Shown one piece after another: positions 751 through 5,202 of a stretch of DNA of 64,000 nucleotides. Source of the DNA: Escherichia phage ECO103 4-12-1. Each line of letters starts with the position of its first letter. The stretch's first letter is position 1. The stretch lies in sequence record OR844650; one strand, written 5' to 3'. The position numbers and the translations under genes were made by a program. A model generated the notes under the pieces. The model saw only the letters and a list, made by a program, of their open reading frames with translations, searched no databases and was not told the DNA's origin.

Positions 751-1038
751 TTATTCAACAATCCCCAACTTCACAATCTCATACCCGTCCAGATAGCCGT
801 AGGAACACTCAGGTGTTTCATAAGATGAACCATCATGGATGCCTTGGCATTGACTTTTGGAATTCTCAAGCAATCGTTGCAGTACTGATACGTCATCAAG
901 AACGTAATACAAGTTAGCATATAGGTCCGTTACAATACAGTACTCCAACATATCAAATGTATCAATCGAAATTTCAACCTTAGCAAATCGTTTCTTTTCT
1001 TTATTATACAGTGCGTACATATTAATCTCCATAATCAA
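751..1038 (-). CDS. hypothetical protein (possibly C-terminal part of a disrupted kinase-like gene)
   Basis: 95 aa ORF overlapping end of 1022..1393 in another frame. Confidence 0.4.
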   Translation of the reverse strand: MIMEINMYALYNKEKKRFAKVEISIDTFDMLEYCIVTDLYANLYYVLDDVSVLQRLLENSKSQCQGIHDGSSYETPECSYGYLDGYEIVKLGIVE

Positions 1039-1393
1039 GTTTAACTAACTTACCACCCAGATACCCAAAGTTTTCTGGCTTCGCATCTGAATAGAAGAAG
1101 TCAGTACTTAACTCTGAATTCAATGCTAAAGCACACAACTCCACCCAAAATAAACCCCTATGTTGTACTGGCTTACAACGTTTCTGTATAGTTACTAGTC
1201 CAGTACATGATGACCACAACGTAGGGCAGATACCACTATTACTACGCTTGGAGTACTGCATCCACGAACGTTCATTGAGGTTAGCTATCATCCCTGTTAA
1301 GAATAGCTTCCAACTTTTAAAGGTTGGAATCTTGATAGCATATTCCCCAATGAGTATGACAGTTCGTGTTGCACCTTTCAAATCTATATTCAT
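1022..1393 (-). CDS. protein kinase-like fragment (N-lobe, catalytic loop, DYG)
   Basis: YAIK lysine motif, catalytic-loop-like DAKPEN, KLDYGD; ORF ends right after DYG. Confidence 0.5.
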   Translation of the reverse strand: MNIDLKGATRTVILIGEYAIKIPTFKSWKLFLTGMIANLNERSWMQYSKRSNSGICPTLWSSCTGLVTIQKRCKPVQHRGLFWVELCALALNSELSTDFFYSDAKPENFGYLGGKLVKLDYGD

Positions 1394-1402
1394 ATTTTTT
1401 AA

Positions 1403-1654
1403 TTAGAAGAACACAAACCAAGTCCAGAATAAATTCCACACTACAAATAAAGACATAGTGGTTTTATGTACAATATCAGCAGTACTGGTCCATCCTCCAC
1501 CGTGTCCTATTCCATTTATGAATAGAACTAAGAACAAGATACCATTTACTACAATAGTACATAGTAAGTACACAAACACATTCCATGCAAGTTCAGGGGA
1601 TACTAACGTAAATGGTAAAACAATTAGTAGTATTAGAACTAATAAAATTTTCAT
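1403..1654 (-). CDS. small membrane protein
   Basis: 83 aa, two long hydrophobic segments. Confidence 0.5.
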   Translation of the reverse strand: MKILLVLILLIVLPFTLVSPELAWNVFVYLLCTIVVNGILFLVLFINGIGHGGGWTSTADIVHKTTMSLFVVWNLFWTWFVFF

Positions 1655-1870
1655 TTATCGCCTCACTTAATTAACGTGACAATTAGTACGAATCAGATTC
1701 CCAGTACTCGATTGCTTCTTTCAGCAATTCTTTAGCACGTTGTTTTGCAATGCGAGCGGGTAACAGATATGTGTACATTAACTGTCGCTTCACTTCATTC
1801 AGTGAAAGCTGTTCATGGTACAGTGCATCCATCAGTCGATTACGAGTACGTAGTTTCATATAAGTTATCC

Positions 1871-2425
1871 TTATTTCAAAGAATCATAGTAAGCAGTGTC
1901 AAAGATTGGAGTCATAATAACATAGTCAATACGGTCAATGTAAGTTGAACTCCACATTTCTGGTTTGTCATATAACTGACGCTCGCGTTCATTCATACGA
2001 GTCAGTACTTCTTCCAATTTACTACGTGAATCCATCAATGTATTACTCGAACCATAAGTGAAGTACTCAGTCCAATGATATTCATATTCAGTACTGATAG
2101 ATTGAATAGTACCATCTTTGAAATGAGCTAAGGCATAACCTTTCTCTACAAAGTTATCAGGTGGAAGAACACCATCTGGATTAGTTTTCAAGGCTTGTGC
2201 TAACTTTTCTTTAATTTCAGTTAACGTGCATACTGAACGAATGTTCTTCAGGTTTGATACTTGAAAATCACTGTACTTTCCAAAGAAAAAGACACGCCAA
2301 TCTTTAGGTTCATTATCAGATACGGTAGCATTAGGATGATGGGCGAGTAAACGAAGAAGGCCAGCTTTATGACCGTTAATGTAGATTTCATGGATGTGGT
2401 TAGCAGTTTTCTTAAAAGTAATCAT
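1871..2425 (-). CDS. hypothetical protein
   Basis: 184 aa ORF, ATG start, downstream of consensus promoter. Confidence 0.55.
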   Translation of the reverse strand: MITFKKTANHIHEIYINGHKAGLLRLLAHHPNATVSDNEPKDWRVFFFGKYSDFQVSNLKNIRSVCTLTEIKEKLAQALKTNPDGVLPPDNFVEKGYALAHFKDGTIQSISTEYEYHWTEYFTYGSSNTLMDSRSKLEEVLTRMNERERQLYDKPEMWSSTYIDRIDYVIMTPIFDTAYYDSLK

Positions 2426-2473
2426 GGTAGTTCCTCGATTGTAGGGATGAGAAGTTCATCCCCCTTGATAAGC

Positions 2474-2501
2474 ATTATACAGTACTGAATGTGTTTGTCA
2501 A
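2474..2501 (-). promoter_or_regulatory. sigma70-type promoter TTGACA-16-TATAAT
   Basis: rc of 2474-2501 reads TTGACAaacacattcagtactgTATAAT. Confidence 0.6.
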
Positions 2502-2502
2502 C

Positions 2503-3146: not shown

Positions 3147-3491
3147 CTATCGATTCGGCATATTCTTTCGTAGTCGCAAGAGAAATTCAACCACTGACCA
3201 TGTTGCAATGAAGGCAATATAAGTTGCAAGGAATCCGGTAAGAATAAATGCAACCAGCGTACTACCATTTGGTGCAGCAGTTTTAATGCCGATGACACCA
3301 TCGACTACAGTGAAACATGTAGCCATGAATGTGTAACATACGTACAACACAAAGAAAAACTCATTCTCCATTGAAGGATAGAAACGGTTAAACACTTTAT
3401 AAAATTTAAAGTACAGTAGGATTATACCAACAAAGGCATAGAATGTAAACAGTGTTGTTATAATATATGAGATTAGGTTCAAATTATACAT
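3147..3491 (-). CDS. 4-TM membrane protein, paralog 1 of 3
   Basis: track ORF 3147..3515 begins with GTG; trimmed to first ATG; hydrophobic segments; C-terminus RKNMPNR. Confidence 0.55.
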   Translation of the reverse strand: MYNLNLISYIITTLFTFYAFVGIILLYFKFYKVFNRFYPSMENEFFFVLYVCYTFMATCFTVVDGVIGIKTAAPNGSTLVAFILTGFLATYIAFIATWSVVEFLLRLRKNMPNR

Positions 3492-3492
3492 A

Positions 3493-3834
3493 TCAACGCT
3501 CCGGTAGATTATCACGTAATGTTTTAATTCGATGATACATTTTCATACCAATATTACCAAAGATACCATATCCAAGTACTAAAATGTATGCAATAAGCAT
3601 AGTAATAATTACTATAGTACCAAAACTATAATGTACACTACTGATACCCATTGTAGTTTCAACGATTATTTGAGAAACTGAAAGAATCAAAAGTACAACT
3701 ACAATTGGATGATTTGGGTACATTCGGTTGAACAACGTTTTGTACTTAAAGAAGCACAGTACTCCACCAAATAAGAAGTAAACAATGTAAATGCAAGCAA
3801 CAGCATAGGCAAACATGTTAGTGTAATAAATCAT
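3493..3834 (-). CDS. 4-TM membrane protein, paralog 2 of 3
   Basis: track ORF begins with TTG; trimmed to ATG; C-terminus RDNLPER. Confidence 0.55.
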   Translation of the reverse strand: MIYYTNMFAYAVACIYIVYFLFGGVLCFFKYKTLFNRMYPNHPIVVVLLILSVSQIIVETTMGISSVHYSFGTIVIITMLIAYILVLGYGIFGNIGMKMYHRIKTLRDNLPER

Positions 3835-3843
3835 TACCAATCC

Positions 3844-4182
3844 TTACTTTTCAGGGATATTAGAACGCCATATATCAATGCGATGAACTAGTCCAAAGAA
3901 CAACCATACTGGAACGGCAGCTATCATAACAACAAATGAAAACCCAGTCAAGACCGATACCAGATTTAATTCATCAGTACTATACCCACATATCAGTACT
4001 TCTAATATTCCCCACGTACATGCACAAAACATCAAGAATGAAATTGGGGCATCATAGTAGATACGTTCATATAAAGTAGTGTATCGGAAGAATGCAATAA
4101 TGTAGCAAAACATATAATACACCCAAACCAAAGATACTACATAAAATGATACTTTGTTTATTAATTCAAAATATTGTTCCAT
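3844..4182 (-). CDS. 4-TM membrane protein, paralog 3 of 3
   Basis: ATG start; C-terminus RSNIPEK; same topology as neighbours. Confidence 0.6.
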   Translation of the reverse strand: MEQYFELINKVSFYVVSLVWVYYMFCYIIAFFRYTTLYERIYYDAPISFLMFCACTWGILEVLICGYSTDELNLVSVLTGFSFVVMIAAVPVWLFFGLVHRIDIWRSNIPEK

Positions 4183-4184
4183 TT

Positions 4185-4466
4185 TTACCCCAATATATAT
4201 TCAGAGAGTAATGTATTAGCTTCATCTTTGTTCTTAAGGTAATACATGTAATATAGATTCGGTTCACCATCTTTAGCACTCAAATCGAAGTACTTTAAAC
4301 TATGTACTTTCATAGTAAAAACAAATAATGACTTAAAACCAATCTCACCGTACTTAACAAATAGTTCATCCAAATGAATGTAACTTTTTGATTTGGATAA
4401 TTCTTTAACGTCTGCATCAATTTCAGATAAAAGATGCTTACCTATTAAGTTTTCAAATGAACGCAT
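4185..4466 (-). CDS. hypothetical protein
   Basis: 93 aa ORF. Confidence 0.5.
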   Translation of the reverse strand: MRSFENLIGKHLLSEIDADVKELSKSKSYIHLDELFVKYGEIGFKSLFVFTMKVHSLKYFDLSAKDGEPNLYYMYYLKNKDEANTLLSEYILG

Positions 4467-4527
4467 GATTTTATCCTTTACCGCAATTTTTATGGTTTAT
4501 TAAGAATACATCAGAACATCAGTTCTG

Positions 4528-5202
4528 TCAATAAAAAACTGGATCTTCTTCAGTAATTGGTATTTCTCTACGCACATCACACGAAAGAGGATCAGTAATG
4601 AATACATTCCCATCTTTATCCATCATTACATTACTTGAATGAATGTCTGGTACAAAACGCCCGTGAAACTCTTTCATGATGTTAGCAGCGACCGTCGCAA
4701 TAGCAATCTCTTCAGAATTTCCACGCATATCATTCACTGAAGTAGCGTACTGACCAGCATGTGCATAAGAATATAAATCTCCAATTTTAGTACTAACAAA
4801 GTCATCATAATTATTTTTTTGTTTAATTATAGGATAGTACTTGTCCATCTCATACCATCCAAAGTTTCCTTGTTCGTTGGCACTGTAGATCACTGGAAGA
4901 AACTTGGTTCCTGCGTTTTCAATGCAGTACTTTGCATAAGCACGAAAACCATCCCAGCGTGAAGTGGTTACTTTAAATGCTCGTCCAGGATAGTTTTTAT
5001 GTTCAACTACTACAGAGTACATCCCCATTCCAAGCAAAGTAAGTCCAGCAGCTTTAACTTGTGGAAAGATTACGCGTTCAGCATAAGGAATATCAAACTC
5101 CATCGCACAACGAGTTTTTGATGGACGCAAAATGTCAATTAAAGTTTTGAATATTTCTTGCTTAGTCATTACTTTATCCTCTGTAGTTAATATCAACATC
5201 AT
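4528..5202 (-). CDS. protein kinase-like superfamily protein
   Basis: Gly-rich loop-like LGMGMYSVV, AFKV lysine, catalytic-loop-like VPDIHSSNVMMD, ITDP (DFG-like). Confidence 0.55.
   Translation of the reverse strand: MMLILTTEDKVMTKQEIFKTLIDILRPSKTRCAMEFDIPYAERVIFPQVKAAGLTLLGMGMYSVVVEHKNYPGRAFKVTTSRWDGFRAYAKYCIENAGTKFLPVIYSANEQGNFGWYEMDKYYPIIKQKNNYDDFVSTKIGDLYSYAHAGQYATSVNDMRGNSEEIAIATVAANIMKEFHGRFVPDIHSSNVMMDKDGNVFITDPLSCDVRREIPITEEDPVFY

Follow-up and report, generated by a model that had tools for sequence, protein, structure and literature searches.

A 123-residue kinase core and a T7 gp0.7-like kinase domain encoded within 4 kb of Escherichia phage ECO103 4-12-1

The locus described here raises the question of whether a kinase-like gene that stops immediately after its DFG-like motif is broken or complete. 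It lies near the start of a 64,000-nucleotide stretch of Escherichia phage ECO103 4-12-1 (sequence record OR844650), hereafter the window, in which a first-pass annotation made from the sequence alone had noticed two kinase-like proteins, one of them apparently split or truncated. The first part of that claim was right, since both open reading frames (ORFs) encode kinase-fold proteins, and every motif that had been named (YAIK, DAKPEN and KLDYGD in the shorter protein; a Gly-rich loop, AFKV, VPDIHSSNVMMD and ITDP in the longer one) was found on the minus strand. We consider it likely that the locus holds two independent and intact kinase-fold genes, one encoding a kinase domain alone that resembles the T7 gp0.7 kinase (T7K) and the other encoding a complete kinase core of 123 residues (hereafter the mini-kinase), with an unrelated gene downstream of the latter. 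The three genes are as follows.

751..1020, minus strand: downstream gene, 89 amino acids, start ATG at 1020, equivalent to 121Q gp216
1022..1393, minus strand: mini-kinase gene, 123 amino acids, Hanks subdomains I-VII only, equivalent to 121Q gp215 and Sharanji WNN14422.1
4528..5169, minus strand: T7 gp0.7 (T7K)-family kinase domain, 213 amino acids, equivalent to 121Q gp205 and Sharanji WNN14432.1

The best matches of the first 6 kb of the window were Asteriusvirus jumbo coliphages at 98% identity (JP4, slurp01, G17, Sharanji, 121Q and PBECO4), among about 45 matching phage records, and G17 showed 98.4% identity to the window. All genes between 1 and 8000 are on the minus strand, and the mini-kinase gene and the T7K-like gene are about 3 kb apart within 4 kb. 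A profile search found no second copy of either kinase within the window.

Gene integrity and the junction at position 1020

In the product of ORF 1022-1393, residues 18-21 are YAIK, residues 103-108 DAKPEN and residues 118-123 KLDYGD, after which TAA follows directly, so that the stop codon lies one residue past D-Y-G. Its key residues are a G7-x-T9-R10 loop, K21 (the beta3 Lys), E41 (the alphaC Glu), the catalytic loop D103-A-K105-P-E-N108 and the Mg-binding motif D120-Y-G122. This length and this end point are common to the whole family. An exhaustive profile search over 1.84 billion representatives, clustered at 50% identity, recovered 1,213 clusters at E ≤ 0.001, of which 641 had E ≤ 1e-10. 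The closest 15 cluster representatives were 102-127 amino acids long with 44-97% identity, and all 14 full-length ones (118-127 amino acids) had KLD[YFA]G-x as their C-terminus. Across 159 sequences the median length was 123 amino acids; 72% of the representatives ended 0-1 residue past D-Y-G and 82% ended within three residues of it. The same end was kept in homologues from unrelated phage groups, down to about 30% identity. ORF 1022-1393 is thus a complete gene, neither split nor truncated, and of the readings that had been offered, that of a deliberately minimal domain describes it correctly.

The junction with the next gene reads GGA GAT TAA T ATG, with a Shine-Dalgarno sequence (GGAG) within the last two codons of the mini-kinase gene. 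The ATG at 1020 lies one nucleotide past the mini-kinase stop codon, and a 270-nucleotide gene is annotated from there in 121Q, JP4 and Sharanji. The overlap of the two ORFs at 1022-1038, which had suggested a frameshift, exists only when the downstream ORF is extended to an upstream TTG and disappears with the annotated ATG. The downstream protein matched phrog_8563 over all of its positions (1-97 of 97, E 5e-25), and scans of its ORF against Pfam, NCBIfam and PADLOC gave no usable match. It was found in 37 phage records, all of them Asteriusvirus or K64-1-like, compared with 117 for the mini-kinase. No downstream gene of this kind was found beside the mini-kinase in 20 diverse loci, and in G4507, PhiZZ30 and phi G17 the genes that follow the mini-kinase showed no alignment to the one at 751-1020. 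The only sign of the mini-kinase family profile in the downstream ORF within the window was at E 0.036.

These results bear on the idea that 1022-1393 holds only the 5' portion of a kinase gene, with the C-lobe supplied by 751-1038, either by frameshift fusion or in trans. The position of the stop right past the DFG-like motif, with another frame opening one nucleotide further on, invites this idea, as do the broken mini-kinase copies in a few relatives. Truncated copies are present in the closely related Salmonella phages SD-1_S14, SD-2_S15 and SD-6_S16; a 102-amino-acid variant exists, and BFVD entries A0A2Z5HG44 and A0A2Z5HGC2 are fragments of 84 and 38 amino acids with 94-96% identity. However, across the 1,213 clusters, which come from unrelated phages, the protein normally ends at D-Y-G; the annotated relatives (121Q, JP4 and Sharanji) all have an identical junction, and no obvious slippery site was seen at GAT-TAA-T on reading the sequence. 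We therefore rejected a split or fused kinase as very improbable, also by the refuting outcome that the first-pass annotation had itself named, given that the downstream protein belongs in full length to a separate family, is not a shared neighbour in the 20 diverse loci and has a narrower phyletic spread. What had been taken as 751-1038 is an unrelated, translationally coupled, separate gene that starts at 1020.

The downstream gene showed weak full-length similarity to 2883-3137 on the minus strand (27% identity, pair E 0.017). Both products begin with M-[YF]-A-L-x-N-K and end with YEI-x-x-L, and the two genes are possibly distant paralogues.

The T7 gp0.7 relative at 4528-5169

The second kinase-like gene had been described as an ORF at 4528..5202 with a more complete set of kinase motifs. 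The motifs were confirmed, a kinship to T7 gp0.7 was found, and the start was corrected. In the 224-amino-acid ORF 4528-5202, the Gly-rich loop is LGMGMYS, AFKV occupies residues 75-78, VPDIHSSNVMMD residues 184-195 and ITDP residues 202-205. The gene in fact starts with the ATG at 5169 (MTKQEIF), where all homologues begin and which has AGGA 7 nucleotides upstream, while the ATG at 5202 falls within a -10-like TATGAT. The features of the protein, in the numbering of the longer ORF, are an N-terminal three-helix bundle, a G58-x-G60 loop, K77, D186-x-H188-x-x-N191 and D204-P-L.

The protein matched phrog_15752 (E 1.2e-98) and phrog_2828 (E 9.3e-17), the latter being the group that holds T7K (PMC13645617). 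Comparison of a profile of 16 homologues (A2) with residues 61-230 of T7 gp0.7 by hhalign gave a probability of 98.6% and an E value of 5e-16 over 169 columns. The Gly-rich loop, the FKV/IKV lysine, the D-x-H-S-x-N-x-M loop and ITDP-L/V-S were in register, with D204-P-L aligned to D213-P-V of T7K. Among the 16 homologues, G58, G60, K77, D186, H188, N191 and D204 were invariant, and P205 and L206 were conserved in at least 90%. S207 aligned with Ser216 of T7K, a reported autoinhibitory site (PMC13645617); most homologues have Gly or Ala there. Scans of the ORF against Pfam, NCBIfam and PADLOC gave no usable match, and a search of the solved structures (PDB) with profile A2 gave only weak matches to kinase catalytic loops. 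The homologues P0016-P0039 all carry a precomputed match to PF27024.1, an accession absent from the Pfam copy scanned here. Judged by its sequence, 4528-5169 is a bona fide relative of T7 gp0.7.

As in T7 gp0.7 (PHROG 2828 and 15752), where the kinase domain ends about 20-30 residues past the DFG-like motif, the phage protein ends shortly after it, 20 residues past D204, and is therefore a kinase domain alone. It differs from T7 gp0.7 in having DPL instead of DPV and in lacking the C-terminal shut-off (SO) DNA-binding domain, which is a feature of the Autographiviridae architecture and not of the kinase domain family. The protein is acidic, with an isoelectric point (pI) of 5.6. Jumbophage homologues of T7K, including that of phage G17, have been reported to have lost the SO domain and to conserve the Val of DPV less well, with their activity untested (PMC13645617). 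The isolated kinase domain of T7K (residues 1-242, DPV at 213-215) is active in vitro on thousands of peptides with no motif preference, and T7K has an anti-defence role in which bacterial defences are disarmed by mass phosphorylation (PMC13645617). By analogy with the promiscuous Ser/Thr/Tyr kinase activity of T7K, the T7K-like protein would most likely phosphorylate host proteins, and possibly phage proteins, broadly and early in infection. The host-takeover role that the first-pass annotation had proposed fits this kinship and the anti-defence role of T7K.

It should be noted that WNN14432.1, the equivalent of 4528-5169, was named a T7K homologue in the Sharanji paper. An annotation of the gene exists, two papers have named it, and taken alone it brings nothing new. 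The Sharanji paper also listed one more "protein kinase", WNN14351.1, lying outside the window and about 71 genes from the mini-kinase equivalent; Asteriusviruses may thus carry three kinase-like genes.

The mini-kinase family and its possible activity

The mini-kinase matched PHROG 4301 with an E value of 2.5e-43 at profile positions 40-167 of 225, while longer relatives (142-205 amino acids) matched it up to position 190. The database label of this group is "unknown function". Among 140 diverse members, K21 and E41 were conserved in 100%, D120 in 99% and G110 in 98%; an Asp or Glu was present at position 103 in 99%, Lys at 105 in 86% and Asn or Ser at 108 in 97%. The motifs quoted above are, by this conservation, far above chance. 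Forms of 142-267 amino acids carry short or low-complexity tails, in which scans of Pfam, NCBIfam and PADLOC found no recognisable domain, apart from one family member with a sub-threshold match to an ABC1 kinase-like Pfam model (20.0 bits, cutoff 22.9). The family is mostly basic, with a median pI of 9.0.

Relatives of the mini-kinase were found in 117 cultured-phage records, which included Asteriusvirus, the T4-like Dhakavirus and Tequatrovirus, the N4-like Gamaleyavirus, phages of Aeromonas and Pseudomonas, and jumbo phages of Erwinia, Kosakonia and Klebsiella. Viral contigs of 31-264 kb carry relatives as well. Nearly all of the phage records listed label the protein "hypothetical"; distant members are entered as Ser/Thr kinases in a few GenBank records, and the BFVD matches include small phage proteins that UniProt terms kinases. 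When species-representative genomes of bacteria and archaea were scanned for the single pattern DxKPEN[FY]GY, no relative emerged. One candidate from the profile search, P0066, was a tandem-repeat ORF and was discarded as a false positive. Clustering of the ORFs of 20 diverse mini-kinase loci gave no conserved partner gene.

An AlphaFold (AF2) model of the mini-kinase had a mean predicted local distance difference test score (pLDDT) of 90 and a predicted template modelling score (pTM) of 0.80. Its N-lobe consists of three N-terminal strands with the G7-x-T-R10 loop, K21 on strand 3, a long helix (28-43) bearing E41, and two more strands. This five-stranded lobe is followed by a hinge and one E-type helix (79-92), then by the D103-N108 loop, a pair of short strands and D120-Y-G. 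The bilobal core of a kinase, that is, the N-lobe sheet with helix C followed by the catalytic and Mg-binding loops, is therefore present. The beta3 Lys, the alphaC Glu, the catalytic D-x-K-x-x-N and the DFG Asp are all there, in a register that matches TTK and PknB. Hanks subdomains VIII-XI (the activation segment with APE, and helices F-I) are absent. Because the protein ends one residue past D-Y-G, it is a kinase core and not a canonical kinase domain. Profile-profile comparisons showed no relationship of the mini-kinase to the T7K-like family or to T7 gp0.7, and by the tests applied the two kinases of this locus are therefore not paralogues.

The mini-kinase also differs from other kinases of known sequence. 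Hanks-type Ser/Thr kinases such as PknB and TTK have an activation segment, APE and helices F-I, none of which is present here, and their nucleotide loop is G-x-G-x-x-G, whereas the mini-kinase has G-x-T-R, with R10, P23, G34 and N38 invariant in the family. OspG and NleH lack subdomains VIII-XI and are nevertheless active, OspG when an E2~ubiquitin conjugate of the host activates it (PMC12756638). PDB sequence and profile searches detected no sequence homology between the mini-kinase and OspG or NleH1-2. The solved chains of OspG and NleH comprise 160-169 residues, which is 40-50 residues more than the phage protein, and both are bacterial type III effectors that act in eukaryotic cells. HopBF1, a minimal kinase that mimics an HSP90 client, is a larger effector of plant pathogens without sequence similarity to the mini-kinase. 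ArkI/Ark1 and Rio/Bud32 have other catalytic loops, keep helices after the DFG motif and showed no detectable sequence homology to it. The mini-kinase is an uncharacterised, widespread and extreme variant of the kinase fold, and its family may represent the smallest kinase fold known.

Strong constraint on the Lys-Glu pair, the catalytic loop and the Mg-binding Asp suggests that the mini-kinase would bind ATP-Mg through K21, E41 and D120 and transfer phosphate by means of D103, K105 and N108. Since the D-x-K-P-E-N form of the catalytic loop is a signature of Ser/Thr protein kinases, its substrates would most probably be Ser/Thr residues of proteins. With no activation segment, P+1 loop or helices F-I, the protein has no substrate-docking lobe, and its specificity might therefore be very loose, as in T7K, or come from a host partner, as it does in OspG. 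Activity without subdomains VIII-XI is credible because OspG, NleH and the isolated kinase domain of T7K are active. A bolder reading, which we give somewhat less than even odds, is that the PHROG 4301 proteins are catalytically competent protein kinases consisting of nothing but Hanks subdomains I-VII, the smallest known, which phages of many lineages would use early in infection and which would be either indiscriminate or completed by a host protein. For both kinases of the locus we infer catalytic activity, protein substrates and early timing, and both probably act as early host-takeover enzymes.

Several observations weigh against this reading. Scans of the mini-kinase against Pfam, NCBIfam and PADLOC gave no match up to E = 1. 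Neither single-sequence searches of the PDB nor searches by profiles A1 and A3 gave anything significant; the top match was TTK at a non-significant E of 0.79, with sDaKPeNfG...kiDyG aligned on HSDLKPANF...LIDFG. The hhalign comparison with PknB was co-linear from beta4 to DFG, weak and non-significant, and serves as a register check only. Since these links by sequence are non-significant, the assignment to the kinases rests on the predicted structure together with the motif register. In canonical kinases the F helix anchors the catalytic loop and the spines, whereas the mini-kinase core ends at DFG and might not be stable or active by itself. Glu replaces the catalytic Asp, and Ser the Asn, in one third of the family. 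The degraded copies in some close relatives imply that the gene is dispensable in at least some settings. The literature searched contained no described phage mini-kinase and no biochemistry of PHROG 4301 members. As to early timing, promoter-like sites were not enriched in our scan (26 found, 32 expected).

Two other activities were considered. The mini-kinase could be an active phosphotransferase whose substrate is RNA, such as tRNA, a small molecule or a nucleotide signal. ArkI provides the precedent, being a kinase-fold enzyme that phosphorylates tRNA U47 (PMC9095486). A mostly basic family, an active site left open by the loss of the peptide-binding lobe, and the position of the gene beside rnlB in JS10 or near a tRNA cluster in G4507 and PhiZZ30 would all suit such a role. 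Against this, the catalytic loop carries the protein-kinase signature, while small-molecule kinases of the same fold have H-x-D-x-x-x-x-N with no Lys, and the RNA-related neighbours belong to parts of T4-like genomes known to be plastic and do not recur throughout the family; we judge a non-protein substrate unlikely. Alternatively, the protein could be a non-catalytic nucleotide-binding module, that is, a pseudokinase-like switch, decoy or inhibitor that binds a host protein. Neither an F helix nor an activation segment is present, ATP-binding pseudokinases also keep the Lys, the Glu and the DFG Asp, and many phage host-takeover binders are likewise small, basic, stand-alone and, as in some relatives here, dispensable. 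However, an acidic residue at the catalytic-base position in 99% of members, with Lys105 in 86% and Asn or Ser at 108 in 97%, would not be expected if nucleotide binding alone mattered, and T7K, OspG and NleH are active without subdomains VIII-XI. We regard a purely non-catalytic module as quite unlikely.

If the mini-kinase is instead an active protein kinase of subdomains I-VII, it would be about 40 residues below the smallest solved kinase chains found here, everything past DFG would be dispensable for phosphotransfer, and a host protein might act as a surrogate C-lobe. If active, it would also define how small the catalytic core of the protein-kinase fold can be, and phages would have, beside T7K, a second and independent kinase class. 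The family is very common in phages and comprises 1,213 metagenomic clusters; Pfam offers no model of it, and searches of the solved structures gave no relative by sequence. Its size of 123 residues makes the protein attractive for structural work and protein engineering, and the presence of both kinases within 4 kb of one phage offers a natural system for asking about their division of labour.

In the T4-like phage JS10, the mini-kinase homologue (2477-2845 of its locus) lies directly upstream of the gene for RNA ligase 2 (rnlB), and in the T4-like phages G4507 and PhiZZ30 it lies two genes upstream of a tRNA cluster (2501-2881 of their loci). This adjacency could reflect an RNA-related role or merely the plasticity of these genome regions.

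Expression signals and neighbouring genes

Candidate expression signals were found around both kinase genes, all on the minus strand.

5198..5229, minus strand: hairpin GGTTGACTTCGGTCAGCC with a T-run and a -35-like TTGACT, then an extended -10-like TGTTATGAT, directly upstream of the T7K-like gene
313-330, 5212-5229, 6292-6309, 7869-7886, 8052-8069 and 11294-11311, minus strand: copies of the GGTTGACTTCGGTCAGCC hairpin
313..330, minus strand: one of these hairpin copies, differing by 1 mismatch, where the gene run with the mini-kinase gene ends
4512..4527, minus strand: terminator-like hairpin immediately after the stop codon of the T7K-like gene
2474..2501, minus strand: intergenic promoter-like site with the sigma-70 consensus (TTGACA-16-TATAAT, 12/12)

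The hairpin with its T-run occurs in 6 copies in the first 11.3 kb, where 0 are expected by chance. At 5212-5229 and 7869-7886, the two copies whose surroundings were read, the stem contains TTGACT and a -10-like hexamer follows 17-18 nucleotides on. The element seems to be a cassette that unites a terminator with a promoter, placed between early-type genes. The intergenic gap that holds the site at 2474-2501 is upstream of the gene run from 2425 to 325, which includes the mini-kinase gene; as the promoter scan was not enriched, calling it a promoter depends only on its perfect match and its intergenic position. Together, these putative signals fit early transcription by the host RNA polymerase.

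ORF 325-738 on the minus strand encodes an HNH endonuclease (phrog_2255, E 1.4e-32) that is also present in JP4, UB and slurp01. The match of 121Q, G17, Sharanji and SP27 to the window begins only at 750, so that these phages lack the endonuclease ORF, which resembles a mobile insertion placed between a denV-like gene and the gp216-like gene.

Between the two kinase genes, three tandem ORFs on the minus strand (3147-3515, 3493-3840 and 3844-4182) encode small hydrophobic proteins of 112-122 amino acids that look like paralogues. Two of the three cluster by BLASTP, and all three share a similar C-terminal N-[ILM]-P-x-[KR].

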